A DNA stretch of 64,000 bases from Takakia lepidozioides (lineage: Eukaryota > Plantae > Bryophyta). Below are positions 1 through 25,064 of the stretch, one piece after another. The translations under genes were made by a program, and so were the position numbers. Location of the stretch: positions 26,350,001 through 26,414,000 of the forward strand of contig CM060733.1 in the NCBI GenBank assembly GCA_030704615.1. Reading direction: 5' to 3'. Under the pieces are notes generated by a model. That model saw nothing but the letters and a program-made list of their open reading frames with translations, was not told where the DNA came from and searched no databases. Position 1 is the stretch's first letter, and every line of letters starts with the position of its first letter.

Positions 1-200
1 GATAGCGGCATAGCAGTCATGAAATCCATCGAGACGCTTTCCCAAGTCCCCTCTGGAATCGGCAAGGGTTGTAACAGCCCCGCTTGCTTTTTGTACTCGC
101 TCCGGTTTTGTTGGCATGTGGTGCATGTCTTGACATACTCCTCTGCCTCCTCCCTCAGTTTGGGCCAGAAATACTCTTTCTTCAGGAGTGCCGCAGTTCG
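1..200 (-). mobile_element. Ty3/Gypsy integrase fragment (zinc-binding domain and start of catalytic core), running off the left edge
   Basis: Manual translation of the minus strand gives RTAALLKKEYFWPKLREEAEEYVKTCTTCQQNRSEYKKQAGLLQPLPIPEGTWESVSMDFMTAMPL. This contains the CxxC of the HHCC finger and the GLLQPLPIP..W.SVSMDF signature. It is not in the ORF track, and similarity stops abruptly at about 200. Confidence 0.9.
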
Positions 201-404
201 CACATGTGTTATCCTAGTGGACAGTCCAGCAGGGAAAGTCCACTAAAGAAAATTAAATCTAAAATCCAGTCACAGCGGTTACAGCGAATCGAAAGCCAAA
301 AAAGGGATCAAGAAATTGGAAGGAATTTAAGCGCAAGAGTCAGCGTCGTTCTAAGTAACAGACGTCTCGACGGGACAAACCATCAATGCTATAGCTTTGA
401 AGCT

Positions 405-3400
405 ATGGAGGAACTAACAGACTATACGCTCGCAATATTACTTACGCAGTGGCATAGGGACGAAAGAACAGAGCGGATCTTTTCTCTTGATCGATGCTTG
501 CAAGCCCCGCAGGCTTACAAGAAATTACCCATAGCTTTTTGTGGCAACCATACGTTTATGCTTTGTGCCCTGCAGGCATTTCTTCAATTGTTACAGCCAA
601 AACATTTCTGTGGGTCTAGAATGAAGAGAGTGAGAGGAATGGAGGAAATCAGGGTGAAGAGCACCACAATCCTGCAGAAACAAACGATTGCTACTCCACA
701 GGCGGTACAGTTACTGAAGGAGCTGCGATTGCAAGGATTGCAAAACAAAGATTGGACATTGCACCATAGACAGTACATGTTACAATTCTTGCAGAACTTT
801 GAGCCTAAGACAGGAGCAACAACGGTGAAGGGAGTTGAATTAGAAATTACTCCCCTATACCTACAGCAATTGTTTCAATTGCCAGCAGATCAGGTGCATG
901 TGGAGGAGCACAGGGCAAGACTGCAAATATGGGACTTATTCCAAGAAGGGAGTTTCTTTAAAACTCAGGGTTATGCTTGTACGAAGGCCGTGTACCCAGG
1001 GCTAAAGGAGGTAGGCCAGGTATTGAACGTTCTGTTTGCCATGAAACAGAACCAACAGTATTTGAGCAGATCCTTCACAGAGGAAATACTCAAAGCCCTG
1101 AGAGGAGAAGAGGTAGAATGGGCGGACATAATGTACAACGCACTGGTAGAGGAGATGAAAAGATTACAGGGTACTGCTGCAAAGTCTCCTATCATAGTGT
1201 CTGGCCCAATCATTGCTCAAATAATTCTTGATTCTGGCATACTTGATGCTCGAGAAATAAAGGAGATGGGAGTGTTTGAGCCAGAAACCACTACAATGGA
1301 AGAGCAAGGCTCTTCACACAGTGAGGGTGGACTGGCAGGGCAACCCCAAACTAAGAGACAGAGGCGGGGAAAGACTGTAGTGGCGGATCCATTGGCTTCA
1401 CGGAATCCGCATGATAATGTTTCCCAAGCTCTTGTGCAGGAAGGGGCACAGCAGCACAGAGAACTGCTATTATTGGAAGCGGGACCTTCAGAGAGGGAAG
1501 AGGAAGTTACTTCAGTATCACAGCCATCACAGCCAGATGATCGGCCTGTCACAGAGTTACCACAAGTTGTCCATGCAGTTCCACCAGAAATAATTGATTT
1601 GGAGAAAGAAGGGTTAGATATTCCCACTACAGAACAGGTTGTGGCAGAAATTGAGAACGGGGACCTTCTCTATGAATATTCTGGTCTGGTCAAGGAGACA
1701 GTGATTCCAGAGGTGCAACAGTTGTCCAAGGGAAACCCTGCGGTGCATATAATACACACACCTGTGCCGGAGGTACCACAGGTAGAATGTCAAGACACTG
1801 CAGCACCGGTGACGGATGAAGTGGTTCAGGAAGAAAATCTGGTGGGATAATGGCCTGAGTGGTTCGTGAGGCATCACACTGTTGAGGATCAGGGAGAACA
1901 GCAGCAAGCTCACAATGATGACCCTCAACAGGCCATGCTTATGAGTTCCATAAGCAGGACACTTAATTTGTTGGGGACTTATGTCAAATCCCATGTTCCA
2001 ACTACCCAATTGACAGCTTGGAACTCAGGAAGGAGTTTGAGGCTCGACTAGCCACTGAGTGTGCAAACAAGGTCGATGAAGAGGTGACTCTCAAGATGCA
2101 GCAAGACTTGGAGAGTACAGAAACGGCTTTGCAATTGGCCAATGAATAATTGATTGAGGCAGGCCTCGCGCAAGACCAGTTGCACGAATCACATAAGCAA
2201 CAGCTATACCAAATGCAGGTGAAGCATGAAAACAAGTTGCAATAAGTGAATGCACTACATACGGAGTTGCGGACAGTGCATGACAGGATGGCCATACAAT
2301 GTGCTACACTCACAACTATGCTTGACCAATCTACAATAGAAATAAACAGTCAAGCGGAAAGATGTACGAAGGCAGAGGCAGAAAATGTTGAGCAAGTGAA
2401 ACTCATTGTCGATATGAAGAATACAATCTGTCGCAATGAGGATACTTTCAAGCAATACAGGCAGGTTGAAGCTGACCAAGAGAGGCACATCCTTGAGTTA
2501 CAACAAACGGTCATGGCCAATAGAAGTGAAATCTCTGTTGCTAACAAGGCTTGGAAGGAAGCCAATAATCTGCTTGCTGCCTATGCGAATTTGGTTGAAC
2601 CTCATGCGAAGCGCATGGAGGCTTTACAACAACAGTTAGATATGTACAAACTCAGAGAGGAGCAGACTCTCAGAAGTACCACAAGCAACTTGGTGGATAA
2701 CCACCTTATGTAGGTCTGGTTAGCACAAGGGCCAGTGGAGGGCAAAGCACCACGAAAGCTCACCCAAAGTGAGATGAATGAGCTCAGACTGCAAGTGCAG
2801 AACATTGCCACAACTACTATAGACAATGTCTATAGTAGGATAGCGGAGTTACAGGAGGATGTAGACGACTTGCAGACTCAAGTGGAGGACCTCACTTCAA
2901 ATATCGACAAGAGAGTCTGTATACCTGAGGAACAGCTAATGGCTTCTTATTTAAAAGCGAGAACTTTAGTTTTTCAGTCTTCTTCACAGGAGGTGCAGGA
3001 GATGCCAATGGTACAAGAGCCAGTGCCACCAACACCACAACAGGTCACTGTGCCAGTAGCTGACCCGGTGGTTACTACAGCCACACCACAGCCACCACAA
3101 CCTGAGGTATGGGGGAATGCTGCTTTTAACCCACCTAAAACTCCAGCTGCAAGGGAGTACAGTAGGGCTATGATTATGCCCTTCAACCAAATTCCCATTG
3201 TGTTGGATTTGGCTTGGAAAAAATTTAGTCCTCCGCAGTCATTGGCACATTACTATCAAATCATGCGCATTTGGCTGCCAGTGGCAACTAGGACTAAAGT
3301 TCTTCCGAACAATCGACCAATTGAGGATCATCACTTTGCACAGTACTGGCATGAGGCAAGTACCATGTTGAAGGAATTAATTGCCTTCCAAGTTGTACAT

Positions 3401-4171
3401 GGATTCATTTATACCAAGACCAAGGAGGTAGCAAGTATTGTCATGGGCTGCGGGTTATACTACGCTGCTTGTTTTCTGGTACGTTATCACATTGAGCAGC
3501 ACAAGATGCAATCGCGCTTTTTGAGTTATTCCAGTGGGGATCATTGGGTCTTACCTTTAGTGCCACCTCATATGTACCTATATGAAGCAAAAGTTATGAT
3601 GCAAAAAGATTCTCAAATTCGTTCATGGTTTCATGCGGCCTGGAACAATTTGTCAACACATAAATTCGGCCCTGACGATATTTTCTTTAAAAGACATGAG
3701 GCATGGAAATACTTGCACAATTCACAAGTCATTGGTACCCCACTCACCTGGACAGACAAGGAGCTCAGGGTCTTCACCAATTTTACCATTCAGCGTTTAC
3801 AACAAGTTTTAAAGTTTAAACTTCTAGACATGGTAGGACAACATTGTATGCCCCAGAGGATTCCACAAAAAGTTCGGCAGTTAAAACACCTGAGAGGCGA
3901 TGAGGATTCTGATACAACTGTTTCTTCAGCGGACTCTTTTGATATGGGAGAAGACTATGCAATTCAGATGGCAGAGAAGAAGCAACGGGGGTCTCCTATG
4001 CCTGAAAGATTACCTCGATATCAGCCTCCAGAGGGCCTTACATATCCAGGTAGTGTTCAATCATCTCCGTCAACCAGTGACAGACCTCGGGCTCGTACAC
4101 AGAGTCATTCACGAGACTCTCAACGTCAGAAAGGTGCTCGCTCACAAAGGTTTGCTAATCCCAATCAGTAA
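405..4171 (+). pseudogene. Large accessory (env-position) ORF of an LTR retrotransposon, disrupted. N-terminal putative plant-transposon-protein-like domain plus a long coiled coil
   Basis: ORFs 84-1850, 1866-, 2246-2713 and 2735-4171 join through in-frame TAA/TAG stops and one frameshift near 1990. TVKGVELEITPLYLQQLFQLP and ALRGEEVEWADIMYNAL resemble the Transposase_32-type domain of plant LTR extra ORFs. A heptad-rich region spans about 2020-2900. The ORF ends about 20 bp before a PPT and LTR. Confidence 0.65.
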
Positions 4172-4192
4172 ACCGTGAGGACACGGCTTTTT

Positions 4193-4209
4193 GAGAGGGG
4201 AATGGGTAA
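4193..4209 (+). promoter_or_regulatory. Polypurine tract (PPT)
   Basis: GAGAGGGGAATGGGTAA immediately precedes TGTTAG at 4210. Confidence 0.75.
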
Positions 4210-5062
4210 TGTTAGAGGACTGTCTGGGACTTAGACACTTTATGGGATCTGTGGGGTACCCTTAATTTTTGCACAGACTGAGACCAACAGGAGCCTTAGG
4301 GGTGACAGCAGCGCACTTTAGGGGGGGTTACACAGCCCGTCACAGCCAACACAGCTCATCACAGTCCGACACAGCCCGTCACAACCAACACAGCTCGTCA
4401 CAGCCAACACAGCCCATCACAGTCCGACACAGCTCGTCACAGCCAACACAACCCGTCACAGTCCGACACAGCCAGTCACAGCTCGACACAGCTGACACAG
4501 TCCAACACAGTCGCACAGCCAGTCATAGCTTGACACAGCTGTCACGACCATAAGGAACGGATAGCAGGACAGGGAACGACTTTGGGGAACAACATCTGCG
4601 AATGGAACATGTTAGTTCACGGGTGACGGTTAGTGAGGGAAACGGTTAGAACAATGGGTAGGAAGATAAAGCGAGGAGCGAGGACTGGAAAAGGATCACT
4701 TCTTGGGGAATCACTGCTAGAAGGAGTGGGGGAGCACTTCTTGGGGGGACTTCGGACATCACTGGGGGAAATGAGGCAGAGAGCGTATCTCTGAGCAGAA
4801 AGAGGGAGAGCACGGAGTAGGAGGAGGATGATCTGTTGATGCTTAATGAATGCATGCAGTAGAATTGTAATGTAGAGCAGATTAGAGACTCCATGGCTTC
4901 AGCCTGATACTTGATAGATATTAATCTGATACACACTTCATACTCACACTGTGTAGAGAGATCTGAGTGAAGCTGTGGAATGAATGGATGAGTTGATGGA
5001 ATCCGATAGATTATTGAAGCAAACTGATACTTAATTACCAACAGTAAGGTAACTAGCTAACA
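4210..5062 (+). mobile_element. 3' LTR (853 bp) of a plus-strand LTR retrotransposon
   Basis: It starts TGTTAG and ends CTAACA (perfect 6-bp terminal inverted repeat) and follows a PPT. Confidence 0.75.
4330..4548 (+). repeat. Degenerate (CACAGC/CACAGT)-core minisatellite inside the LTR
   Basis: About 20 copies of 9-10 bp units such as ACACAGCCCG, TCACAGCCA and ACACAGCTCG. Confidence 0.85.
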
Positions 5063-5227
5063 TGAATGCGGGAAGGAAAACAAATAGGAAACACCCCCAT
5101 GATACACTAGTTGTAGGTCATGACTGATTGTTCTGAGCGGGCTGAGTGCTTAGATATTTCCAACTCTTCTATCTTGGAGTTTCCGCCTCGGATAGCGAAG
5201 GGATGGGTGAGTAAAAGCCGCGCGACA
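5063..5227 (-). mobile_element. Probable start of a third, nested LTR, itself interrupted by the LTR ending at 5062
   Basis: Pol-like coding on the minus strand (..WEDGRVRIV) breaks at 5228 into TGTCGCG, a typical LTR start, followed by non-coding-looking sequence. Confidence 0.35.
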
Positions 5228-5593
5228 CAATCCTTACTCGACCATCCTCCCACACTCGGAGCATGTGTGTCCCCTCCCACTTGAACCTCTTGGCTTGTTG
5301 TAGGATCCGATCCCTCTCCTTGGCAGTCACAGTGGCTGCAGTGTCTCCAATGCGGAGGTAGTCCAACACAACTGAATCCTCATGTATATCTTTGGCGCCA
5401 CCTTGCTCATTGCTGGCCGCAGGGTCCTCAGACACTTGATCTACAGTCATCCCTGTTGCAGGTCCAACCTCGCCTTCCGCTGCCAAGATACACAGAAATG
5501 CAGATGCATGCCATTCGGGCACCATCTCCTCGTCCGTCTCACCATGCCACCGAGCTCCAGTGTCATCCTGCTAGCTCGTGCATGGATTGCGAC

Positions 5594-6140
5594 TCAACCC
5601 ATCTGCAAAAAATTGACCAAACTCGGTCGATGCACCACCTGAAAGTCATACTCTTGAAGGATGAGTGCCCACCGTGCAAGCTTCCCCGTAAGCTTGTCTG
5701 ACTCCATCAACCACTTGAGTGGTTGGTGATCCGTGACAAGGGTGAAGAGATTGTCGTATAGATAGCACCTGAAGTGTGCCACGGCCCACACTGCAGCTAA
5801 GCATTCTCCCTCATATGAGCTATACTTAGACTCTGCAACGTTGTTCGAGCGGCTAGCATAAGCCACTACGAACTCTCTTCCCTCATCATCCACCTGTGTG
5901 AGCACCGCTCCAAGCCCCAGCATGCTCCAATCTGTATGCAGCTGAAAAGGACGCCCCCTGATAGGTCGTCTCAAGATGGGCGCCGAGGTTAACCTTGCCT
6001 TGAGCTCTTGAAAAGCTTGTTCTTGCTCATCTTCCCACTGCCACTCCTGGTCCACCTTGGTCAGCTTGGTTAGAGCCTTTGCAATGGCACTAAATCCCTT
6101 TACAAACCGTCTATAATAGTTTGCTAACCCCATGAAAGCT
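5594..6140 (-). pseudogene. RT thumb/connection and Ty3/Gypsy RNase H
   Basis: FMGLANYYRRFVKGFSAIAKALTKL, AFQELKARLTSAPIL, LHTDWSMLGLGAVL, AYASR..AESKYSSYEGECLAAVWAV and FTLVTDHQPLKWL. Confidence 0.95.
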
Positions 6141-6720
6141 AAAGATGATGATGTCATCTATGTAGCACCGAGCAAATTCCACCCCTGCTAGAATCCTGTC
6201 CATGACTCTCTGAAACTCTGCCGGAGCGTTCTTAAGCCCAAATGGTAAGAACCGCCACTGGTAAAGGCAATCCTTCTTGTGCTCATTGATCCCCCAGAAT
6301 GTCGTCTTCTGCTTATCCGCCTCCTTGATCGGCAACTGGTGAATCATAAATCCAAAGTGCTAAAGACCTTGGCATGCCCAATGGCATCAAAGATCTCCTC
6401 TGGTGTCGGCATAGCATACCTATCGGACTTGGTCTGACGATTTACAGGCCGGTAATCACCGCACATACGTCTCTCCGTCCAATTGCCATAGACATCCTTC
6501 TTGGTTGGCATCACTGTGGCTGAAGCATACTCTCCCCCAGATAGCTCCACCAAACCAGCCTCCCAAAGGTCCTGAGTTCTCATCTGAATCAAGGACCTCT
6601 CCATGTCACTGTATCTATAGGGTCTCCGAAAGATTGGCGTGTCAGCAGCTAATTCAATGCGAATCTCTTGACCCTTCAGTGCTCCTAAGTCCTTCAAACT
6701 GAAGGCAAAGCAGTTCCTAT
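6141..6720 (-). pseudogene. Reverse transcriptase (Ty3/Gypsy)
   Basis: RRPYRYS, RMCGDYRPVN, FSTLDL*, LPFGLKNAPAEFQRVM and YIDDIIIFS. There is an internal stop at 6344-6346 and a deletion just after YIDD. Confidence 0.95.
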
Positions 6721-7164
6721 AAGCCCTCAAGAACCGCCGTATACGTCGTCTCCCTCCTCCGCTGACTATAGGTCCAACATTAGGCTCCCAGTTGTCCTCC
6801 GTGACTGCAACCTTGAGTCCAGCAGGCTTAGAGGTAGAAGACACGTCCCGTGGTTGCTATGCTACAACCTCTTGAGCAGTGACCACTACCTCCTCTGTCC
6901 GTGACAATGTCTCACCCTGCCCCATCATCCCATCCTTGAGGACCTCCTCAACCCGAGAAAAATCCCCAACCTGATCCATCACTGCCGCCTTGGCTGCCAA
7001 CTCCTTATGAACCTCGAGCACCTCCCACGTGTGCCATGGATGCGGCCTGCACCTCGTGGTCCCCACCTGCTCGCCCCCACTTGCTGCCTGTAACGTCTTG
7101 GTAGGCAGGGAGACCATGAAGGGAAGTGTACTTCGCACTCTGCGCTGCTCAGCCATAGCCAAGC

Positions 7165-8105
7165 TGATGATCGAGGTCAAGCAATTGAGATCCATTGCTT
7201 GCCCCAACACCTGACGACATGATGCCTCAGAAAGAGATGGCACCGCCGTGGTACCTAGGGTAAAACCCATCGCCCGCTCGCACTCGTCAGCATTGGGCTC
7301 CACTAATTGTTGCAACTGGCTATCCCACAAGAGGCCAGGTCCACCATCCCGAAAAGCATGGGATCCTGGGAAGCTGAGCAGTGTAGGTAATGCTGCTCGT
7401 GGTTGACCCACCCTGTTGACCCACCCTGTTGACCACTGCCAAAGGCGAACGGTCATCGTGTCTCACACGTTGAGACTGCCTCCCTGTGTCCAAAATGCTA
7501 TCCACTGTGAGGTGTGCTGGCCGCTGCACCCCATCAAATGCACGCTTGAGCAGTGCGGGTGGCATCAAGTTAGTCCACCATAGCCGTGGACGATGAGCCC
7601 GTGACCCCACTGCAGCTGCATCCAGCAACACTGCTGACCCAAGCCACGACCGGACTTGATGCACACTGGCCATCACCCTGGCCCGAGAATCACCCATCAG
7701 TGGCACATTCTCCAAGATGTATGCTGGAGATACAGCTTGATGAAGCTGCAAGTGGCGCAAAACCCGCACCATCTCCTCGAGTCTCGCAATTCATTGCCAT
7801 GCCCAGCTGATGAATGCCCTTGGCAGGGCCAACCTGCCACTACCAGATCAATGGAGCCAACCTGCTCCAAATCCTGCGCCCCCAGCAACGAAATGTCTGC
7901 TGGCAAGGCTTGTTGGTATACACGAACTGCAGACACTGGCAACAAATCAGGGTACTGCTGTACCAAGTGAGCAACATGGCGTAGTGAGACGCGTCATGCA
8001 GTCTCATCCTTCTCCACATACAGGTAACGTTGAACTCGTACACCTGCCTGCAGCACTGCAGCCAATCCAGTGCTGATCCCGCCAAACAAGTCCAGAAGGC
8101 ATATG
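7165..8105 (-). pseudogene. DNMT3-like DNA (cytosine-5) methyltransferase domain embedded in the retrotransposon pol
   Basis: Motifs occur in canonical order: I LLDLFGGISTG (about 8068-8100), II YLYVEKD, III ADIS, IV DLVVAGWPCQGHS (PC at 7823-7828), VI YILENVP (7704-7712), VIII LDAAAVGSRAHRPRLWWTNL, IX ECERAMGF and X RQVLGQAMD. The domain is broken by a TGA (7994-7996), a frameshift (about 7775) and a 13-bp duplication (about 7402-7434). Confidence 0.93.
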
Positions 8106-8479
8106 CCTTCATCCGGGCACTGCCACACAAGAGGTGTGGTATCTAATGGCGACAACTGAGGTGGTCTTGGTGCAATCACCGCACTCTCCTCTTTTCCTGA
8201 CGGTATGAAGGCCTCTACCCAGGCTTGTTGCACCCGTCCATGAGCAGCCTGCTGCAAATCCATGCTCGTACCCCACAATGGAGTGTGAGCAACCATAGCA
8301 GGCAACTCCGCCGTACCATGCATGTCATCCTGCTCTGCTGAAGGTGGCACATCCTCTGCATGGGCATTGCCTTCCAGCAACTCTCCAGGCCAACTTACTG
8401 CAGCTGTAAAGGCGGCTAGTGTTGGCATCTTGCCCCGCTGGGCAGCCGCAATACCCCCAATGAATGTCACAGGAAGCTA

Positions 8480-8900
8480 TGCACGACGACCATCCCCTGA
8501 CTGCCATCCAGGCCGGTAGGATGCTGACTCCTCCCAAAAGTCCAGGGTGAAGCCCATGGGATATAACACTGCCCCACCAACGAGGACATCGTAAGAGACT
8601 GCGTCTGTCACAATGGCTTTGGCTCGCATCACTGAGCCATCTATAGGATGATCCGGCTGCAGTCTAATGGCCAACTCACGCCGTATCATGCCCTGAGCCT
8701 GCTCTGATCCTCCCAGAGATGTCTGTATCTGGAAAGGACAAGGCTCCATATCCGCCTCCATGAGGCCCAAACCTGCGATAGCAGCTCTGCCAACAATGGC
8801 ATCAATGGCTGAGCTCCCGAGTCCAACAAGACCCAAAGTGGCCGGTACTTCTTGCCTGCTGGTCCACTCAATGAGAAAATGCCCTCATGGTTGTCTAACA
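8480..8900 (-). pseudogene. Retropepsin aspartic protease
   Basis: VLLDSGAQP catalytic motif (about 8806-8832) followed by SYDVLVGGAVL (the D.LLG flap-type motif). Confidence 0.85.
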
Positions 8901-9456
8901 ATATAACTCCAGGTGTCACCATGGCGTGCTCAAAGGCTGGCCTAGCTGGCAGCTCCGTCAATCTGGCAGCTGCAGCTTGCCAAGGCGCAGCCGTGGCAGT
9001 CTTGACCCTCAAATCCGAGGATCCCTCTGCCACTATACTTTCCACTAACTCCGCAGAAGATGAAGTGACCTCTCCACTCTCACAGAGTGTTGCTGCTAGT
9101 CTGAACACTGCAGCTGGTCTTACCCCCGGCGTCGCAATCATGGTTGCCGAGAACAGTGGGGCTTGACACACAGAGGTGGCTGCCCCCAACAACACACCGG
9201 CTGCACTAGCCTTGGTAGCAGGTGTCAGTGCTGCACGTGTAGCTCTCCCCAATGGCATAGTAACCTCCGCCTCGGTAACAGTCGGGCGAGAACTAGGTGC
9301 CATGGATGGCGTCGACACAGTCTCCGCCAATGTGAATGACTGAGGAAGCCTCGCCTGACGGCTTGCCTCCCCACGCCGTGGATCCAATTTCACCTCTGCA
9401 CCTCGTGGCTTAGAAACTCGTGCTGCTCCTCGAGTCACGGTTGCAGCAGACTCCAC

Positions 9457-10971
9457 CTACACTAGTGGTAGTGCTGCTCTGCACATGAATCCCATGCCTC
9501 CCATATCTCCTCCCTCATGAGCAGGAGGTGGGCCATCCCGCCTGGGAGCTGGTATCACCTGAGCTGTAGCCATGGCAGCGAGCCTCTGCTCTAGCTGCTG
9601 AAGCCGGTTGACCATGCCTTGGTCAACACCCTGACCTCCGCGTCCTTGGCCATGTTGAGCTTGCCCTTGGCCTGCACCTCGTGCCCGACCACCTCGTCCT
9701 CTCTGGGCTGGTCCACCTCGCCCCTGGCCACCATTGTTCCCTTGGAACTGGCCTGGGCGCAACTCAGGATGCAAGTCATAACACTGGGCATCTCCATGCC
9801 CATACTTGCCACAATGCCCACACTGCAATTGTGCAGGCTGTGCTTGTGCCAGCCTTCTGCCACTCTCTGGGCAATCTCTCTTGACATGGGGTCCTCCACA
9901 TGTCCAACATATCACCCCTGGTTGCTGTTGGCCTGCAAAAGATGCCACGGGCCTCTGCACCTGAGGTCCCCTGTAAGCTCCATGGAACTTGGGTTGGGAA
10001 ACCTTGCCCCCCTGACCACGCTGTTGGGCAGTCCCTTGTGCCTGTGGGCTGGCAGCTGCGCCTCGTGCAGGCATGTCCTTGCCAAATCCAATGGTAACAA
10101 CTCGCTCCTCCACATCTGCTAATGTGGGTTGGACTGCTTGTAACAGGGTTGCATCTCGCACCCTTCTCTTGAGCTCCTTGTCCAGAATTCCATACCAAAA
10201 CTGGATTGCTTGAGCTTCAGTAACCCCTTGGGTCACACTTATCAAGCGCCTCATACGAGTGTACGCCTCTCGCAGGCTCTCACTGGGTTTGCGCTGGAAG
10301 TCTTGCAAACTTCGCAGCTTCTCAGTCTGTACACCTTGGTAGTTCCTCCGCAACTCCTGGAAGAACTCCACCACCAGGCTGAATCTAGGCACATGTGTTG
10401 TAGTCGTGGGAGGATGAGTAGTAGCACCTTCTGCAGAAGTACTGGCACTACTAGTGCTAGCCGTGGGAGGTATTGGTGTTGATGCCGCTACTGGTCGTGT
10501 TGTTCCTCAAGTAATGGAGACGTAGTCAGGTGACCAATACATCCTCCACTCTTCAATTTCTGCTTCATGTCCTTGCCTGAACTCGTGGTAATCGTCCATA
10601 GGCGGGCCTTCCAAATGCTGGAACAATCCCTTCCGCGCCATGAATGGGGTGAACAGCTGTGGATTGCGCATCTGCTGCAAATCACACCAACTGTCGAACT
10701 CCTGGATAAAGTCATCCAGCTCGATTGTGCCCACAGCTCCAGAGTACATGCGAGGTCCCTTGGTAGCTCCATACATCTCCTCCATGTCGTCCCACAACAA
10801 TGGCGAAGAAAACTGTACACTTGTTGATGAAACCTCCGGGTCTGTGTCAGACTCTACAGTACTTGAGGGTGGGGGTGAAGGTGGTCTGAACCGAATACCT
10901 CGTCTTGTGAACCCACTCTCACTGTTACTGCCTGTAGCCGTACTCCCCTCAAAACCCTTGGGTAACTCCAT
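9457..10971 (-). pseudogene. Gag with two CCHC zinc knuckles
   Basis: PRMYSG..LDDFIQEFDSW, FQRKPSESLREAYTRM (major homology region), CWTCGGPHVKRDC and CGHCGKYGHGDAQC, plus an RGG-rich tail. Confidence 0.88.
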
Positions 10972-11520
10972 GATGATATCACAATGTGCACCTCCCCCAC
11001 GTGACACTATAGGGCTCTAGTACTAATTCTAATAGTGACACGGGTGGGCACCTGTTGCAGTTTAAGGGTCATATCCCAGTGGCTCAGGGCACCTGCACCT
11101 GCATCCACCACAAGAACTCCTATGGTTGGCTGGTCATCAACCCAGTCTCACCATAGAAGAAACACTGGTGGTCTTGCTGGTCATCACTCCAGCCTCACCA
11201 CCGACAGCATACTCTAGGATTGACCGGTAATCAAATCCGGCCTAATCCCTATGAAAGCAAGCGCCCACACAAAACCAACATGGCGCACAGTCAAGCATGC
11301 AGGTGTTGGAGGGGATCCAAACACAAGAAATCAAAACATCAACACCCCCACACCAAAATCCAGCTGCAATGCTGATCCTGCAGAATATCCCAGCCCAAAA
11401 CCCCGGACTGACTGGCCTCCACCAAGAGAGGCTTTGGCAACTACAAGTACAAGGTAATGAAAATAGTACAGAGATGGAGGGGAAGAATAGAAGCCCGACC
11501 AAGCAAGATCTAATCCTGAT

Positions 11521-12273
11521 CTATGCTATCAACTGCCAGACTTCTCTCAAAGTGCCTCGCTCTGCATGATGGTAAGGTGTAGGAGGTATATCTATGTCCA
11601 GAAACCTGCCACTAACCTTGTCCCAAGCTACAGTAGCTCGCTCTAACCAACCCTCCTCCTCTTTCTGCCAGGTAGAGACAAAGCAATACTCCCCTATCTC
11701 CCGCTCACTGAATACTAAAGAAAACAAAAGTAGGGTCTGATAGTCTCTCAACTCGAAAGCTTTGAGACGGTTGCGGGTGTCTTCATTACGAATGACTGCA
11801 TCTCCTTCAAGCAAAACAAACTTGTCATTGCTAATGAACCCCCGCTCATGGTTGCCTTATGCAGAGTGTGTCCGGCTGCAACCATGTCTGATTGCACAAA
11901 CTTGTGTAGCTCCTGCTTCTCTGCTCCAGTACACCACGGCCTTGTGGCTGAACACCTTGGTCCCCGGGGCTGTCTTTGGCTGTGTTCCAAGCCTAGCTTT
12001 CACCCACTTTGGTATTTCACCTACAGCTGCAGAACTGCTGGCTCCAGCAGAGTTCTGACTGTCCAAAGCGATATTGAGGCCCTCAACGCCAACTACAGCA
12101 GTTTGTTGTCTACTGCTAATGCCTGACTCCCAGTATGCAATCAACTCGTCCAACTGTTCTCCACTCAAATCAGTCTGAGTTCCTTGGGAAACATAAATCC
12201 TGTCCCCTTGTGTGCACAGGCTAAGAGAAGAGACCTGCCCTTCAATGACGTCCTCCTCATTTCCCCCAGCCAT
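11521..12273 (-). pseudogene. Frameshifted extra ORF upstream of gag, unknown function
   Basis: Two adjacent minus-strand ORFs (11857-12273 and 11521-11814) with protein-like composition, on the same strand as gag-pol. Confidence 0.4.
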
Positions 12274-12846
12274 ACAAGGAGTACATCCCCAGATTTATCT
12301 CTCATGTAGACCAGAACAGGTTCTAGAAACAGAATTGTGGATCTTTCATGGCACACTCACACTCTAAAAATTCCATAGATTTTTAGCAGAGTCCCAAAAA
12401 CTAAAACCAAGATAGGTAGATTTCCCCTTTCTGCAGCTATCCCCTCAAAAACTGAGTCAAACAGAGTCCATTTGACAAAGATATGACCAATTTGGCTCTA
12501 AATCATTTAAATTAGATCAAAAGGTTTTTTTTTTTTTAAAAATAATTTTTTAAAGGTTTTCATGACGATGGAGGTCGTGGAGCTCATTTCCCCTTAGCAA
12601 CACTTCACCTTGGCACCCTCACAAGTTTCGTTGAAGTAAAGCTGGCAAGCAAGTTCCTGCAAAACCTGCCCCATACACCAGCTTAGCAGTGTCCAAATTG
12701 AGTGATCCCCAGCTGGAACCTTTCTTCAAGCCCGTCGGCTATGTGGAAACCCAGCTGCAGTGCACGGAAGTACGAGTGCCTCGACCACTCTGCAATGTGT
12801 CTGGCTTTGTGGCAGATCTGCCCTCTGATCCTTGCTTACTGGCGCG

Positions 12847-13002
12847 GGCTCTCAAAACCCAAAAGAACTGTTGTCCACTGGCTTCGAGTCCGAGAGCTAG
12901 CTGATCAATCTGTGTGGCAGTGAGTAGTGCTACGGTTCCAAAGGTAATATAGAGAACAGATGACGGAGGATGGCTGTTTAACCATTCTAAGCACCTTGCC
13001 AG
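12847..13002 (-). pseudogene. UDP-glycosyltransferase (family 1 UGT) exon fragment
   Basis: Manual translation gives LARCLEWLNSHPPSSVLYITFGTVALLTATQIDQLALGLEASGQQFFWVLR, the conserved block upstream of the PSPG box. It starts after a TTTTTTCCCTTGTAG splice acceptor. It is not in the ORF track. Confidence 0.85.
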
Positions 13003-14568
13003 CTACAAGGGAAAAAACCCCGAATTTCCTCCTTCCCTGCCCTGCTTAGAAAGAGCAACCTAAGCTGCTGACAGTAAGAGCCTCTTTCCGAGGAAAAACC
13101 AAGACTCTTACGTCATTCAACCACTAGGGGTACAATCCAGTTCACAATAACAGAGTCAGTAAATATCCTTCCTGACAGACTCCTTCACGTTCTACATAAA
13201 GCATATTGCCAAAGCTGCAGTCGCACCATTGTGAAGGATCTTTAAAGAACTCCATTCAGCGCTGTTCCATGCTCCAATGCTGACCTACATGCCAGATATT
13301 CAAAAGGGCGATTCTTCCCTTATAGGCCCCTTCTTCGACCAGATTACTAGGTGCTGGTCAAGCCAAAAGACAGTTCACGGTGCATAGAATACCCGCATAC
13401 AGAAACAGCGAAGTGTTATGACCTAATCTTGTTGGGATCCCTGAAGGCTTCGTAGGAGGCGTAGCTACCACTTGAAAGGGACTCCGTACTTGGGCCTTGA
13501 CAAGTAGCATCCCGCTTTCAGCTCCATAACCCAGTCCTTAATCTGGTCAGCAAGCAAGCATCACGCATCAGTGAAAACCATAATCTGCTGCTCCATTTGA
13601 GTACATCTCTCAATCCCTCTCTACAGTCCCCCAACATTACCAATCACATTCTGCTCTTCCGCTGCCTCCCCAGCACCACAAGATGTGAAATGCTTGTTAT
13701 GCACCCTCGGTTCTTGATCCAAAAAAACTGATGAGCAAAGTGTTTCCATAAAAACAGCGGAACAAAGGATGCGCCCCGCCATCCAGCACGCTCTGCTTCT
13801 CGTTCGACCTTCACTACTCGCACGCCATACACGAGCGCGCAACGCCGAGACTCGTCGACAGCACGTCCGGAGACTCCGCACATGGACAAGCAGCAACACA
13901 GGTGCAGGTAGACAGTTCAGTGGTCACTGCAAGACTCCATCACCAAGAACTTGGGGCCAACTTGGCCAATTTCTACACTCATGCCAACCTGGTTCTTGAC
14001 AAGCTACCGCTCCCGCCAAGTAAAATCATCAGCTCTATAGGTCACGGTGAATCCAGCAACATGCCTGCAAGCCAGAATGGGCTACAAGCCAATGGCCCTT
14101 CTTGAGCTGCAACACAACGGACCACACAAGTTGGGCACGACTGGCCTACTGGGTGCTCAGCCTGCCCCAGCGCTCAGGCAGCAGGGCTGCCAGGGCCCCC
14201 GCGCGCATCCGCCACCACAAACAGGGATAACTACACCCTGATCACCACCAACGCCAATGTGTAAACAACAAGCGCATACCCATGGCAACAGCAGGGCAGA
14301 TGGACTCCTGCCCCAAGATATATATTATAATAGTGCTAAAACAAACATTGTATCTAGCTTAGCACTAGAAAACTAGATAGCGGCATCTCTCTCGAGTGGT
14401 AAGAAGCTAGGAACACACTGTTCACACAAGAAACAACATGAATCCAGCAACATCACTCTTTAAGATAATAGTCGAGCCAGGGGCACCCCAAGCTATGGGG
14501 ACTCCACCCCACAACAACCTATACTCCCTACATAAGCACACTCAGATTCTAAAGCGTGAAGGAGCTCG

Positions 14569-14777
14569 GTCGCGCAGGCTCAACTCGAGAGAGATGAGCT
14601 GCGCGACTGACGCTCTCGTGAAGATAAGATGGTTCAGGTGTCAAGCTCAAACTTGACACCTGACTTAACACTTGAACTAAATCCAAGTGTTAAATACAAA
14701 TAACTAGTTTTATTCTAGTTAGTTTCACACTGTGTTTATTTAATTTGACAGCTCGTTCTTTGGAAACATTCTTCCAA
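14569..14777. other. Cluster of five consecutive inverted repeats (hairpins)
   Basis: Stems: 14569-14607 (16 bp with a bulge and a mismatch, GAGA loop), 14634-14663 (12 bp), 14665-14693 (10 bp), 14701-14721 (7 bp) and 14760-14777 (6 bp). Confidence 0.85.
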
Positions 14778-14817
14778 GCATTGTTAGAGTGATCAAGGGT
14801 GTACCACTAAGGGTTTC

Positions 14818-15098
14818 TTGATGCGAGACCACCGCTGCTTAGGTTTGCACCCATATCGAAACCCGCAGCCGCCGCTATAGGTTTAGGGTTTCTGGCTACA
14901 CAATTGAAGGTTTCGCCTGGCTGAATTGGCGCAGATAAATCGTATAAATGCACCAGTCCTCTATACCCGCTTATGGTTTTATTCCGTTTTGAAAATATAT
15001 AACTCCTATGACCGAGGTTAAAAGACATAAAACTCCCATGACCGTGGGTTGTGCTCATGTGAACATGCTCACACTGTGCTCACGCAATACCAACCCCC
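14818..15098 (-). repeat. Dispersed repeat (DNA-transposon end), inverted copy at about 44045-44336
   Basis: The reverse complement GGGGGTTGGTATTGCGTGAGC..GCACAACCCACGGTCATGGGAGTTTT..AACCTCGGTCATAGGAGTTATAT aligns with 44045-44336. Confidence 0.8.
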
Positions 15099-16279
15099 AT
15101 TAAAGTCTTTAATGGTCAATAATAGACAAATAATCATTACATCTTTTTTTGTTTGATCCTGATGAGACCTTGCATTTTTCTTGTCTTTTTTTGTAGTATA
15201 ACTTCAATTACCTTGTACATCGTATTTATTTGTAAATCAAATATAGTAGTCATGGTGTGTCAAAGAATCAACCAAAGCATATAATGTGTACACCGAACTA
15301 GGGAAAAATGATCATGTTGACTTTTCATATAAAACATCTTAGTGGTCCCACAATAGAAGCAATATTGTCTGCAATCCGATACCTTATAACCATTAAATCG
15401 ATGAATACATTGGGGGTTTTAGTAGTAGTGGCTAAGGGAAGAAAAAGCCAAAATTGTTGGATTGCACTATATAAAATTAGAATTAAACTATTACAGTGGG
15501 GTAGTTGTAGCATTGTAATGTACAACAATATACTATATAATAACTGTTCACCCACTTTTCATATAAAACATGTTAGCGGTCCTACAACAGAAGCAATCCG
15601 ATACCTTGTAACAGTTGGCAACATTAACAAAGCTAAAATTGTTCCACAGTGCATTGTACATATTAGTATTATAATGTCATGAGTTCAAGCTTTCAGATCA
15701 ATATATAAGCCATTAAATCGATTAGATCACATAAAGTTTTTGGCTTTTTCTTCCCTTAGCCACTGCCACCAGAAACACCAATGTCTTTCCCGGATTGCAC
15801 TATAAAACTACAATTAAACTATTGACAGTTGTCTATAGTCTATGTCTATCTATGTTAATGTAACTATTCACGCATATCCAAATCATTGATAGGCCAACAT
15901 TGTGATATCAAATTTCTCATTTTATCTTTATAAGAATGTGATCATTTTCGCCTCCACAATACAAATAATTGGAACTAGAGATGAAGATTCTTGTCGAAGC
16001 CAATATATCTTATAGTGCACTTCAACCCGAAGGGCTACTATTTTATGTTTGGAAGGTGGACATTCTTTTTGTTTTGTATACATATTTAGTGCGAGCTGAT
16101 TATAAAACCAAATTGGTCCATTAACAGATATTTTTATAAAATAATTCGCTGATTTTATAATTAAAAAATTATTATGGCACATTGATTTTTTCATGCCCTT
16201 ATTATTTACAACACACTATTTTATACTCTTTGTTAATTTTACTAAAAAACATTAATCACATTAGGTCAAAAAATAGAGC

Positions 16280-16287
16280 TATATAAA
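16280..16287 (+). promoter_or_regulatory. TATA box of the lectin gene
   Basis: TATATAAA about 160 bp upstream of the ATG. Confidence 0.55.
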
Positions 16288-16443
16288 CATGACTACACAC
16301 GCACTTGTGTCAAACCTTCTTCCCAAAACACTTACTTCATAGCTACATTCAGCAAGACGAGACTCTACTTGTCATATATCTTTATCTTTACATACTCCCA
16401 AGGTTTTGTGGATCATAGCAATAATTGCATTCGGACTTGCAAC

Positions 16444-16914
16444 ATGGTTATGACAAAATTTGTCAATTTCTCTCTGCTTGCATTAGTTCTATTTTTCGTA
16501 CATCTAACTTATGTTAGAGCTGATGAAAATGGTGGATGCTGCATACAGGCTAAATATCGGCTAAATAGTGGCAGCTCTCTCATTAGCTCAAATCGGCGTT
16601 ATAAACTCTTGATGTTGGACAACTGTGATGTACAACTGAGGAATTTGGCTAAAAGAAAAAAGTTGTGGGATAGCGGCAGTGGAGGTGCAGGCGTAAATTG
16701 CTACCTCACTCAACAGAGTGATGGAAACTTGGTGGTTTACAATCAACATAATCAACCTAAATGGGCTTCGAACACAGTAAATGCCGGAGGTTGTTTTGGA
16801 GAGTATGAGTTGATGTTGCAAGATGACGGAAACTTGGGAATTTTTTGCACTCCTAGTGGCACTTATGATTATGATTCTTATCTTGTGTGGAGTACTGGTA
16901 CAAGTGGTCACTAA
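16444..16914 (+). CDS. Secreted GNA/bulb-type (B-lectin) mannose-binding lectin, single domain, intronless
   Basis: Signal peptide MVMTKFVNFSLLALVLFFVHLTYVRA. Beta-prism repeats LMLDNCDVQLR, QQSDGNLVVY and LQDDGNLGIF are each followed by W.S.T/S. The ORF is intact. Confidence 0.9.
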   Translation: MVMTKFVNFSLLALVLFFVHLTYVRADENGGCCIQAKYRLNSGSSLISSNRRYKLLMLDNCDVQLRNLAKRKKLWDSGSGGAGVNCYLTQQSDGNLVVYNQHNQPKWASNTVNAGGCFGEYELMLQDDGNLGIFCTPSGTYDYDSYLVWSTGTSGH

Positions 16915-18007
16915 GCCTCCAAGAAGCTACAGATGCATGACATTGGTTATCGTATTTGAACAACAGAATTTATGGATTTGAGCATTGGTGATAGATTTCG
17001 AGATCCAAAAAAAGATTGTAGTGACTATGGTTGTTTATAGAGGAGCTGAAGAGAGCCACTTTGGCATATTTGTATTGAGGCTTGCATTTGTTCTTTAGTT
17101 TCATTACAAAAGAATTAAAGTATGGATTGGGGTAGTATATGGGTTTGTTGATTTGGTGAAGAATGATAAGAAAAGATAAATGTGGGAAATATGTATTGGA
17201 TTATTTGAAGGAGGACATAGAAGTAATATTACACCTAGTTGTGTAAGTTACTATGTTATCTCCAGCATTTTTTATTTCATTTAAGAACGTGAGCCACGTT
17301 GGCTCCTAGCTGGTCTATGAGGAAGATCAATCGACGACTCTGTGGCATGTGATCTCGAACCGGTGGCTTCTGTCAAGAATGTTTGATGAGTTTTATGCGA
17401 ACTCAACTCATGTAGTGTTCGGTTTGTGGGAGCGACAAGGGAGGTAATTTTTTCTAAGTAACAACGACACTGCATATTGCAAAGCCTAGCACAACTTTGT
17501 CACATGGATACAATCCATTGACAAATATGACTAATCTTGTTCAAGATCAGCAACTCTGCTCAAAGCATGCGCTAGTGCAAGAGGCGGTGCAAGTCTGCTT
17601 AAATGGAGGTGCATGACACGAATACTAGGCGGGTAAGCGAAACTTAAATGAGAGTTCGCTCGATAGCTCAACCCGAAAGCGGGAAGAGTTTGAACCCAAG
17701 GCTTTGCTCCTTGCGCTGCAGGGTGGTAGGGTTTCTAGAAATTGATAGGCAAGATCATCTGGATCTAACAAATCCAAATGGCATGTGGCTCACACGTTAT
17801 CACATTGCAAGTTTATTTCCCCATGATGAAAGTTATCTCTTTTGGAAATATGCAAACAAGCGACTCATCCAACTTATCTCTTCCTACCTTTGTTAGTTAT
17901 CATGGAAAGAGGGCAATATCCGTGTTAGACAATATAGACCCATCCGGATATTACCGCTAATCAAAGTATCCGGATCTGACCAAATTTTTATGTTTGTTGA
18001 CTAATCA

Positions 18008-19550
18008 CTAGGGTAGCCTATGCCTTTGGCCCAAATGTCGAATGTCATCTAAGTCCAAGTGCAATCCCATGTGTATCCAAGTGTGTCTCCTATGTCGAGG
18101 CCCAAATGCGACCTCTAGGATAGCCTTTGCGGTTGGCCCAAGTGTCCAGTGTCATCTAAGCCCAAGTGAAAGATCTTCTATGTATCCCCGTGCGTCTCCT
18201 ATGTCGAGGCCCAAGTGCGACCTCTAGGGCAGCCTATACCTTTCGAGGCTTCATATATCGATATATCCACTTTGCTATTTTTTGTGAATTTCCAGCAACC
18301 AAAAGTACTTGAAATTCCAAATCTCCCACATGAAGGGCCAATCATTGCTCCAGGAACGCCCACTTTGCTATTTTTCTCAAATTTCCAACGACCCAAAGCA
18401 CTTGAAATTCCAGATCTCCCACACCGCTGGTCCAAAAATCGTGAGACCAAGCTGGTGCACTCCTCCTCACCGAGGGCTTTCCAACGACACCAAGCACCAG
18501 CATAGGGGCCCAGCGGTTTGGGAGATCTCAATGATGCCAAAACAAAACAAAACAAACGTCTTGCTTCATATATTGATAGGGTAGCCTGTGCCGTTGGCTC
18601 AAGTATCCAGTGTCATCTAAGTCCAAGTGCAATCCCCTATGTAACAAAGTGCGTCTCTTATGTTGAGGCCCAAATGCAACCTCTAGGGAAGCCTTTGCCG
18701 TTGGCCCAAGTGTCCATTGTCATCTAAGTAAGTTTTTTTCCACAGAGCCTACGATCAGATTTGAACCGGAGACCTTTCCCTTGATATCTCTCCCGTTGAG
18801 GCTCCAACCATTGTCCCACTTTGCCATTTTTGCTATTTTTCGCGAATTTAGCGACAAAAAGTACTTGAAATTCCAAATCTCCCACACGAAGGGCCAATCA
18901 CTGCTCTAGGATAGCCCACTTTGCTATTTTTTGTGCAATTTCCTATGTCTCTAGAGACCCTCCTGTTTGGGAGATCTAGGCCTAGGGTAGCATGTGCCAT
19001 TGGCCCATGTGTGAAGAATTGAAATCTAGGCTCAAGTGCAATTTCCTATGTATCCAAGTGCTTCTCCTATGTCGAGGCCCAAATGCAACCTCTAGGGTAG
19101 CATGTGCCGTCCAAGTGTCCAATGTCATCTAAGTCCAAGTGCAATCCGTATCAAAGTGCGTTTCCTATGTCGAGGCCCAAATGCAACCTCTAGGGTAGCC
19201 TGTGCCGTTGGCCCAAGTGTCCAGTGTCATCTAAGTCCAAGTGCAATCCCCTATGTATCAAAGTGCGTTTCCGATGTCGAGGCCCAAATGCAACCTCTAG
19301 GGTAGCCTTTGCCGTTGGCCCAAGTGTCCAGTGTCATCTAAGTAAGTTTTTTTCCACAGAGCCTACGACCATATTTGAACCGGAGACCTTTCCCTTGATA
19401 TCTCTCCCGTTGAGGCTCCAACCATTGTCCCAGGAATGCCCACTTTGCCATTTTTGCTATTTTTTGTGAATTTCCAGCGACCAAAAGTACTTGGAATTCC
19501 ACATCTCCCTCACCGCTTGTCCAAAAATCATGAGGCCAAGCATACAGAGA
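18008..19550 (-). mobile_element. Tandem/nested non-autonomous Helitron-like elements with a repeated ~105-bp 3'-terminal unit
   Basis: Repeated CTAGGGTAGCCTGTGCCGTTGGCCCAAG (minus strand: GC-rich hairpin then CTAG). The putative 5' end (minus strand) reads (TC)TATCAATATATGAAGCAAG at about 18560-18578. Confidence 0.6.
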
Positions 19551-21399: not shown

Positions 21400-22270
21400 G
21401 ACATTCGGTTAGTAAGCTGCCACCACTAATTTGCAGCTGACTGGATTCGAGCTCCCTCTAGTTTGTGACACTCAATTTCCAGGAGCTGCTACTGAGCTTG
21501 ATTAAGAGAATATCAAACAACAGGGTCAAAAGGTTGGGTCTCAAGAAGAAGTTCACCCTAAGTTACCTGCGATCTAAGAGTATCTTCTTCTTGCCGACGT
21601 TGAGCCTTGGCCCGCCGCCTCCCTTCAGCCCTGCAAAATACTTGCACGCGATGAAGAACTTCAAAGACCCATTGTGCCATTGCAGAGGGGTCAGTAGGGC
21701 GAGGGATCTCATGCCAAGCAAAAAGTATTCTAGCCTTGAGTTCCTCAGACTGAAGAAAAGAAAGATTGAATCTAAAGGGGGGGATCCCAAAATCCGCGAG
21801 GTTAGTACGGATTTGAATGAATACTGGACTATGGTCAGAGATAGGGTAGCCACTCAAAAACCACATTTTACCTCTACTGCTTAGAGCCCAATCGGCTACA
21901 TATACTCTATCTAATCTTTGAAGGATATTATCAGGGCCTTTGTGGCGGTTGCTCCAACTGAAAAGTCTCCCTCCAACTCTGCCAAAATCCGAATCTGTGA
22001 TTCCAACAGTAAAAATGAATCGTTCCCACGCTCCACGTTCCTCCCTAGAGAGGTTGCCGTCTGACTTCCCCCTCCCTTGTCGCTTGAATTTTCAACATTG
22101 TTGAAGTCTCCAACAAAGTCTACCCATGAAGAAGCTTGCGGGAGAGCCTGAACAGAGAGACGACCAAAAATGAGGTCTCTGTGTGTTGTCGTTTGGAGCA
22201 TATATATTAAGAATACCAAGTGTAACCTAGTGCTCTGGTGGTGCACTCTGGACAATATTTTACCAGGAAG
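21400..22270 (-). mobile_element. LINE (L1-clade) APE endonuclease remnant
   Basis: NIYAPN, VGDFNNVE, RLDRVY and ISDHSPV motifs across frameshifted pieces. Confidence 0.85.
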
Positions 22271-23680
22271 ACGTAGTTTTGGCTTTTCTTATCATTAAAA
22301 CCGATCCAGTTCTTTCTGGAAAGTGCAGGGTGCAGTCTTATGTTTCACTGGAGTATGAATTTACAAGACCATGTGCATCCTGCAAGAGTTCCCATATTCT
22401 TGTTCGTGTGCAGCTGAATTCTTGTGTCACCATCTCCTTTGGGGACATACCCCACCACTGCCCAAAATTTGTCAGTCTAGCAAATAAAGGTCAGGGGCTT
22501 CTATGGAAATGCATCCTTGGTGATGATGCTTGTTGTATCTCTTTGTTGGTACTGTTATTGGCGTCTGGGTCCTAATTTGATCCACAGAGGAACTGAAACA
22601 ATTACCTGTATCAGAAGTTGTTGTGCAGTGATACGGTGAGGATTTTTTGTGCATCAAACAAATAGAGAGGGCCAAGGGGTCAAGTTGTTTGGTAGGTCCT
22701 TGTTGGGGGTAATATACTTTAATGGGTTGTGATGTTTTGCAGGCTACCACGTAATCAGATTTGAGGTGATATGTAACCAGATGGCAATGTCCAAGCTTCT
22801 ATTTCGAAACATGTTAGATGCTTCCTCACTAAACATGTGTTTGATAATCTCTAGTAATCTCTAAGGGCTAATGATTGACAAATGTAAATGGTCATGACTG
22901 GGACAGATGCGGAGTATTTGGAATGCCCGATTTGAATATTCAGTTGAGCCCGCTAAGCACATCAGCCATGACCAGCCATGACCGTAGCAAGCCCTGCCTT
23001 TCATGACTACATTGCTATGTGCTATTTAACCCTTTTCCTTACAACTATGGGCAAGATTAGAATCTTATAGCATTGAAGTTATATGGAAGACAAAAAAGTC
23101 TAATGGATGTGGTTATGGTATAAGTTATCTGCTGAAAACTCAGGCTGTTTTCAGAAAAGTAAGATGTCAAGACCAGCGACACTCTATAATCCACAGTTTT
23201 TGAATCGTGCATTTACGTGAGCAGGATTGCTGTGATGGCACATAAAAGCAAGCACGACAAATTTATTTCCATTTCTAGATATATGAAATACAATGATTCT
23301 AGTAGGGTATTTCATTTGTGTAACTAACTGTGACTCTTTCTATCTCTTTCCTTTTTGTTTTTGTTTTTGTTTTTTTTGTTTTTTTTTGTTTCTTTTTTGT
23401 CATCTTAAAATCTTAATATATAATAACTGAAAATCAGGTTATATTGATAACCGATGTATGGGACCCGGTGTTGTTCCACTTGGATAATGACATATTGATA
23501 ACCGGGAAAAAAAATTTGGGGGACCCTTCTATTGATAACCTCTAACCGCCACAATTTCCAAACCCCTACATTATATATAACTGCCTCCATTCCGCTTTAA
23601 GCAAAGATGTTTTACCCGGACCCTTCAATATGCCCAAATTGTCATATCCGCCCAACACTGGTGTGTACCTTCATCGTATC

Positions 23681-24965: not shown

Positions 24966-24993
24966 ATATACATATATATATATATATATATAT
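24966..24993. repeat. (TA)n microsatellite
   Basis: ATATACATATATATATATATATATATAT. Confidence 0.9.
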
Positions 24994-25063: not shown

Positions 25064-25064
25064 T

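Follow-up and report, generated by a model that had tools for sequence, protein, structure and literature searches.

We analysed a 64,000-nucleotide (nt) stretch of the genome of the bryophyte Takakia lepidozioides (GenBank assembly GCA_030704615.1, contig CM060733.1, positions 26,350,001 to 26,414,000; hereafter the window), which carries on its minus strand a decayed Ty3/Gypsy retrotransposon with a DNMT3-like C5 cytosine methyltransferase (DNMT) between its protease (PR) and its reverse transcriptase (RT). The in-frame stop codon that follows the DNMT, which the first-pass annotation of this DNA had taken for a lesion, is conserved among relatives of the element. With moderate confidence, we favour a reading in which Gag, PR and DNMT make up a first open reading frame (ORF1) that ends at a leaky stop, and in which the enzyme would be packaged and would methylate the complementary DNA (cDNA) of the element.

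In the window, the stop and its context read TAG CAA CCA (6,859-6,851) and lie in frame with RT. A stop occupied the same codon in 33 of the 34 relatives with an unshifted linker, a count made without the motif-containing anchor pattern mentioned below. Counted over all frames, 51 of 54 aligned loci had a stop there (TAG in 38, TAA in 13) and all 54 had CAA as the next codon, while none of the remaining codons tested had more than 37% stops. DNA of the ORF1/ORF2 junction was available from the window and one metagenomic family; the two align at the stop in a DNA alignment despite saturated synonymous sites, and the frame continues across the stop in both lineages. That stop and CAA were kept despite saturated synonymous divergence suggests that Gag-PR-DNMT is likely ORF1 and that the part from RT to integrase (IN) is reached by readthrough. 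To judge from the sequences, the stop is probably read through on occasion to give RT-IN. The window matches six of six positions of CAR-YYA, the readthrough consensus 3' of the stop in tobacco mosaic virus (TMV; PMC2194720; here and below, published systems are described after the available text of the cited papers). The RNA 3' of the stop showed no stable structure (z +1.9, +1.4 and +0.3), as would be expected for a short TMV-type signal. At the protein level, 52 of the 69 proteins of the surrounding DNMT clade stopped 58-169 amino acids (aa) past the domain without RT; three Marchantia models reached RT over a shortened linker, 13 ended earlier and one was internally deleted. Among other proteins with the DNMT before RT, 11 of 18 continued into RT, three Closterium proteins among them.

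The first-pass annotation had placed a collinear set of C5 methyltransferase motifs between the protease (LLDSGA) and RT (YIDD), and all were present in that order on the minus strand: DLFGGISTG (8,092-8,066), YVEKD (8,020-8,006), GWPCQ (7,834-7,820), ILENV (7,718-7,704), AHRPRLWWTNL (7,598-7,566), ERAMGF (7,279-7,262) and RQVLGQAMD (7,216-7,190). From motif I at 8,092 through motif X at 7,190 the order is canonical, with the catalytic PC and ENV in place. The motifs are not circularly permuted (VI-X do not precede I-V), which ruled out a DRM origin. The DNMT3-like character proposed at first pass was likewise borne out by the closest structures, both by sequence and by fold. PF00145 matched one fragment of the window domain above the cut-off (Pfam, E 3.6e-5), and a phmmer search of the Protein Data Bank (PDB) with an intact relative returned DNMT3A (E 2e-11), HhaI (4e-4) and entry 4onj (7e-3). 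The structure model of a relative ~70% identical to the window domain (P0077; predicted local distance difference test, pLDDT, 89) had listed top Foldseek matches that were all DNMT3A/B/C, the best being to DNMT3A/B (E 2e-19, target TM 0.82). Phage methylases shared 22-28% identity with the domain, with similarly weak scores. The catalytic Cys was retained in the window and in 66 of 67 loci, the motif I Phe in 69/69 and the motif VI Asn in 64/65. By sequence and modelled fold, the domain is a DNMT3-like C5 methyltransferase, its activity being predicted.

Homologous proteins were searched first with the N-terminal part of the window domain and then with a profile. We found 17 long homologous proteins, 15 of which were Marchantia polymorpha gene models (48-75% identity), and the profile matched 75 longer and 535 shorter proteins. 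The named members among the matches listed (120 of the 535 shorter ones) were Marchantia polymorpha, M. paleacea, Riccia, Calypogeia, three Sphagnum species and Closterium. Most of the matches listed carry no species name; among them there was no name of a seed plant, fern, lycophyte or hornwort and no protein named Klebsormidium, and the viral and prokaryotic-genome contigs scanned held no relatives. At E<=1e-30 there were 470 clusters (50%-identity representatives). In many of these the DNMT lies between RNase H (RH) and integrase, Scenedesmus being the one named example among the 20 checked for a name, and GWECQ replaces GWPCQ (motif IV) in many of these algal members. The position after RNase H looks like a second placement of the same module in chlorophyte-type algae. 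The elements of this kind (P0017, P0042, P0246 and many of P0236-P0371) make up a large Gypsy clade, in which a PHD finger comes next after the integrase.

In the metagenomes scanned, 218 matches resolved into 74 loci. The full order gag-PR-DNMT-RT-RH-IN was present in 15 of the 74, and a protease directly beside RT without DNMT in none, with a query that favoured DNMT-bearing copies and no RT-only search. The first-pass view of the DNMT as an integral domain rather than a later insertion therefore stands for the family as a whole, and its family-wide presence rules out a one-off capture. The same view had put the domain inside pol: its place between protease and RT is correct, but a single continuous pol is not, since the DNMT ends ORF1 before the conserved stop. 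The relatives are ~8.7 kb long and continue into integrase (Integrase_H2C2, rve) and then a PHD finger (E 3e-8 in L022). Their integrase domains are of the DDE type and not tyrosine recombinases, which ruled out a DIRS element, and by its gag-PR-RT-RH-IN order and Ty3-type RT/RNase H the element is classed as Ty3/Gypsy. All DNA copies seen were decayed; among 60 near-complete metagenomic DNMT regions, two were free of stops and frameshifts. In the host, sequencing run X1 had 82,723 contigs on the region, and its summed depth, which is not copy number, was similar over the DNMT bins (0.74-1.18 million) and RT-RH (0.57-1.11 million).

When the window was compared with 61 loci, the DNMT had a median proportion of nonsynonymous differences (pN) of 0.23 and of synonymous differences (pS) of 0.755, which is saturated; RT, compared with 44 loci, was close to this (pN 0.18, pS 0.74). 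The window domain shared 64-72% aa identity with its closest liverwort, moss-type and unnamed homologues. Amino-acid conservation of the DNMT between host lineages is thus strong, which is one half of the answer to the selection check suggested at first pass; the ratios within the family, given below, are the other half and differ. The trees of DNMT and RT-RH, a further check of that kind, agreed with each other, and they contained no host DNMT3/DRM or Klebsormidium sequences. Both place the window within a land-plant clade (SH-aLRT 99, an approximate likelihood-ratio support) on a branch outside the Marchantia and moss-type copies, with Closterium farther out. These trees (110 rows for DNMT; 27 for RT-RH, including 17 of the 66 rows with DNMT after RNase H and leaving out P0072) came from quick searches with SH-aLRT only and are unrooted, drawn at the midpoint. 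Their topology fits vertical inheritance and a host of a lineage other than those of the liverwort and moss-type copies.

In our preferred reading, Gag-PR-DNMT would be the main product, ending at the conserved stop, and occasional readthrough would add RT, RNase H, integrase and the PHD finger. The methyltransferase would hence be in the particle at Gag-like amounts, the DNMT domain putatively being released by the element's own protease and then packaged. It could there methylate the new cDNA before integration, a step to which we give even chances. Insertions marked in advance might resemble resident methylated chromatin, or the marks might regulate the element's own terminal-repeat promoter. 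The PHD finger, judging by its domain family, may read histone marks at the target site and guide the integrase to marked chromatin.

Several observations weigh against this reading. The 54 loci are those that aligned out of 56 reaching the junction, the anchor pattern used for them contained the motif, and they all come from a single family in which some insertions recur (52 distinct strings). Their context, CAA CCC, scores 5/6 on the TMV consensus, and the 13 TAA codons depart from the TAG of the window. An ATG-type codon stands in frame 6 nt past the stop in 53 of the 54 relatives (A in 53, T in 52 and G in 53). The homologue searches covered proteins up to 2,000-2,140 aa, so that intact fused polyproteins would be missed. 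With regard to the enzyme, the two motif VIII arginines are R in 39/65 and 44/65 loci, so that roughly one to two copies in every three to five of these dead copies, between a third and two fifths, have lost them. For the metagenomic family taken by itself, the ratio of nonsynonymous to synonymous substitution rates (dN/dS) was 0.59 for DNMT, 0.45 for RT and 0.57 for protease, and pN/pS from shared variants was 0.60, 0.83 and 0.18 for DNMT, RT and RNase H, respectively; ratios of 0.59-0.60 do not separate recent selection on the DNMT from decay. The observed/expected CpG ratio was 0.48 in the element and 0.54 in the window background, with no depletion beyond background, and the analysis of CpG and CHG depletion was uninformative. 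Finally, the domain of KnitGypsy-Dnmt3, an element of the alga Klebsormidium nitens, produced no methylation in yeast, a result that its authors called inconclusive (PMC5890265).

It is possible, though unlikely in our view, that in the same architecture RT-RH-IN is produced not by readthrough but by splicing over the stop, by reinitiation or by internal initiation. This would suit the in-frame ATG found in nearly all relatives and the shortened linker of the three Marchantia gene models and of one Sphagnum model, and when the stop region of Candida Tca2 was placed in a yeast reporter, no readthrough resulted (PMC2194720). However, the window has CGG and no ATG at the aligned codon, yet it retains TAG CAA CC, and both lineages preserve the frame through the stop. 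The lack of stable structure, too, is what a short TMV-type signal would predict. Moreover, Pol normally requires fusion to Gag for packaging, which counts against separate synthesis.

We assign a similarly low probability to the possibility that the DNMT is kept for a non-catalytic job, such as binding or shielding cDNA or RNA in the particle, or that it acts in trans and methylates host DNA instead of the element's own cDNA. Gag-level amounts would be in keeping with a structural role or with action in trans, and both the GWECQ of many algal members and the inactivity of KnitGypsy-Dnmt3 in yeast point the same way; on the other hand, the land-plant members retain the S-adenosylmethionine-binding and catalytic residues, and the P0077 model has the complete DNMT3 fold, which a pure binder need not retain. 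That the DNMT is a neutral passenger of an old capture and the stop a nonsense lesion shared by non-autonomous master copies is very improbable and largely refuted by conservation between lineages: the decay of all DNA copies seen and the high within-family dN/dS would agree with it, but the identity to the closest homologues remains at 64-72% with synonymous sites saturated against the metagenomic loci, the same stop and context recur in two host lineages, and the ORFs of liverwort proteins end at the equivalent place.

The element can be compared with several published systems. KnitGypsy-Dnmt3 is a Gypsy element whose Dnmt3-type domain is non-permuted and free of introns (de Mendoza et al. 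2018, PMC5890265). It is alike in having this domain in a Gypsy polyprotein, in its DIRS-like A-coding-B-A-B repeats (here found in the relatives) and in its proposed role, since cDNA methylation has been suggested for Klebsormidium and Symbiodinium (PMC5890265). It differs from the present family, which is very abundant and has a land-plant host. The available text of that paper speaks of a 'Pol polyprotein ORF', whereas here the DNMT ends ORF1 before the conserved stop; that text gives no domain position, PHD finger or stop, and the comparison is by description and not by sequence. SymbioDIRS-Dnmt3, whose domains carried out de novo CG methylation in yeast, SymbioLINE-Dnmt (both PMC5890265) and EpiLTRs (bioRxiv 10.64898/2026.05.21.726589) are also retrotransposon-borne cytosine methyltransferases. 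The first two belong to a tyrosine-recombinase DIRS element and a long interspersed nuclear element (LINE), unlike the relatives here with DDE integrase and PHD, and the EpiLTRs carry a DNMT4-related module with DAM and a chromodomain. In-frame UAG codons between ORFs are read through in TMV, murine leukaemia virus (MuLV) gag-pol and soybean SIRE1 (PMC2194720), and the CAR-YYA context here is that of TMV. By contrast, the predicted switch of our element separates RT from the protease and methyltransferase upstream of it, and is not between gag and pol or pol and env. Host DNMT3 and DRM (PMC10952607, PMC12344493, bioRxiv 10.1101/2021.02.12.428880) share the DNMT3-type C5 methyltransferase fold, but DRM is permuted. 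MpDNMT3b (Mp5g09290) is distinct from Marchantia matches such as Mp4g09160 and Mp8g17980, which are other loci and fused to gag-protease. As transposon ORF1 products, gene models of this kind are best kept out of counts of host methyltransferase genes.

The first-pass claim of novelty holds in part. No land-plant description of a Gypsy-DNMT3 and no mention of the conserved stop were found in full-text searches of the literature, although figures, supplements and subscription papers could hold either; the element type and the cDNA-methylation idea were already published (PMC5890265). In a survey of plant long terminal repeat (LTR) elements (PMC6317226), the available text mentions neither PHD nor Marchantia nor Klebsormidium, and of its 'methyl' mentions the two listed concern histones. 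Later papers, as far as their text was available, cite KnitGypsy-Dnmt3-type elements as present in 'streptophytes', a term that the de Mendoza group now uses and that could include land plants. The new points of our analysis are probably the extension of Gypsy-DNMT3 to land plants and green algae and the conserved stop, probably a leaky one, by which the enzyme becomes part of ORF1. Plants silence transposons by cytosine methylation, yet this lineage keeps a methyltransferase of its own in bryophytes and green algae. The purpose of a retrotransposon DNMT, a question from the 2018 paper, can now be tested in Marchantia with methylomes and methyltransferase mutants, and the conserved stop allows the amount of enzyme to be predicted. 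A wider scenario is tentative and, taken as a whole, rather doubtful: a Gypsy-DNMT lineage may have been inherited in land plants since before the split of mosses and liverworts, its switch moved 3' of the DNMT and its enzyme loaded at Gag-like amounts, with pre-methylated, PHD-targeted cDNA that, where the element is very abundant, may write part of the host methylome.

The element runs in the order gag, protease, C5 methyltransferase, RT and RNase H, with the following parts.

10,972-12,550, minus strand: 5' leader of the element, its exact 5' end lying somewhere between 12,242 and 12,558
6,860-10,971, minus strand: ORF1, Gag-protease-DNMT, collinear with residues 1-1268 of Marchantia P0001 (tblastn)
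9,781-10,971, minus strand: gag with two CCHC-type knuckles (9,909-9,871 and 9,822-9,781), from P0001 homology and motifs
8,480-8,950, minus strand: aspartic protease, limits approximate, with LLDSGA at 8,829-8,812 and a frameshift near 8,797
7,150-8,125, minus strand: DNMT3-like C5 cytosine methyltransferase domain, motifs I-X in canonical order (PF00145, alignment)
6,851-6,859, minus strand: conserved in-frame stop with its 3' context TAG CAA CCA, the stop codon itself at 6,859-6,857
6,140-6,856, minus strand: reverse transcriptase with YIDD at 6,164-6,153 (RVT_1 E 4e-11) and a frameshift near 6,345
5,612-6,139, minus strand: RT connection and RNase H (RT_RNaseH E 3e-36, Pfam)
5,228-5,608, minus strand: linker between RNase H and integrase, ending just before the integrase zinc-binding domain (tblastn with P0001)

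The Pfam models for methyltransferase, RT and RNase H named at first pass thus all matched. The window gag had a weak Retrotrans_gag match (E 0.0011, below the cut-off), and the protease region of the relatives gave weak Asp_protease_2 and gag-asp_proteas matches; the RNase H region had the Ty3 RT/RNase H as its top PDB match (E 7e-23). The start codon of ORF1 would be the ATG at 10,971. We found the copy to be more damaged than the first-pass description of a frame interrupted by single stops and of few lesions. The DNMT motifs are divided between two frames; the domain has frameshifts near 7,775 and 7,420 and the protease has one near 8,797, and ORF1 is further broken by stops at 10,509, 9,459, 8,479 and 7,996. 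Together with a stop at 5,573, frameshifts near 6,345 and 5,608 and ~215 nt absent at 6,139/6,140 relative to two sister contigs, this amounts to five stops, five frameshifts and a gap. The window copy is dead and belongs to a high-copy Ty3/Gypsy family.

Integrase is missing from the copy in the window owing to the insertion of another LTR element at 5,227/5,228; in the relative L046, Integrase_H2C2 is the domain next after the linker. A simple 3' truncation was ruled out, since the nested insertion cuts the element instead, and an assembly chimera was ruled out by a 5,009-nt contig of organism B that spans 5,226-8,415 (RNase H, RT and DNMT). At the other side, summed contig depth drops more than 100-fold past the 12,242-12,558 bin, which marks the 5' limit of the element. 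No terminal repeat, exact 5' end or target duplication was identified for the window copy. The leader holds an ORF of ~250 codons (12,273-11,524, minus strand) with one stop, within the high-depth region. It had no Pfam match and no counterpart in the 74 relatives, and its first half had no usable atlas match; it is possibly an extra ORF specific to the host lineage.

The relatives have non-identical ends, built from a ~333-nt repeat A and a ~112-nt repeat B in the arrangement A-coding-B or A-coding-B-A-B, and identical direct LTRs at both ends were not found in them. L027 has the complete A-coding-B-A-B arrangement, L048 a 3' B-A-B block, L031 a B-A start and six relatives A-coding-B only; relatives with split repeats were placed at 1,679-10,805 (L027), 2,507-11,240 (L022) and 7,566-16,619 (L031). 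An exact 4-bp target duplication was present in 7 of the 8 relatives with both outer ends, a count from which two further rows were excluded because one flank was an internal B-A junction. Directly behind the 5' A repeat lies a sequence complementary to a stretch ~29 nt past the TATA box inside A. This self-complementary register was found in ~18 of 24 cases, of which ten shared the same offset and matched at 12-14 of 14 positions, which suggests self-priming of a type that we take to be Tf1-like. Self-priming is described for the plant Tcn1 elements (PMC6317226). Split repeats of this kind would evade tools that seek paired LTRs.

The nested element contributes one further feature at the junction.

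4,540-5,227, plus strand: LTR (TGTC...GACA), 688 nt, of the separate nested LTR retroelement, from sequence and sister-contig ends

Sister contigs of runs X1, X3 and X9 have loose ends at 5,226/5,227, where the copies continue differently, and in contigs from two organisms each of the two elements runs on differently beyond the 5,227/5,228 junction. The loose ends behind 5,227 in X1 and X3 start with a word resembling a tRNA-type primer-binding site, which is presumably what it is, and a separate X9 contig spans 4,000-5,227. The nested LTR retroelement (75-5,227, plus strand) is also very abundant in the host runs. It has ORFs at 75-1,847 and 2,246-4,168 (coiled-coil-like) and a CACAG-rich repeat tract at 4,330-4,540; its two long ORFs had no Pfam match.

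Elsewhere in the window, a UGT-like pseudogene without a Pfam match adjoins the 5' end of the DNMT element (12,560-13,500, minus strand). Positions 35,763-37,493 (plus strand) hold a long open ORF for a TrkH/HKT-type cation transporter (Pfam E 3e-35). Decayed PPR genes of the PLS type are clustered at 48,900-64,000, where a DYW remnant lies near 57,880-58,060. Smaller features on the plus strand include a B-lectin-like ORF below the cut-off (16,246-16,911), a DUF2921 fragment (54,146-54,766) and a Myb/SANT fragment (59,631-60,029). The PPR pseudogenes with their DYW remnant, the UGT-like fragment and the lectin-like ORF speak for an embryophyte host, in agreement with the land-plant host named at first pass. 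A repeat family with units of ~107 nt occurs at 18,000-19,540 and 30,586-30,876, and LINE-like remnants (RVT_1, zf-RVT) lie with a gag fragment at 21,561-27,790.

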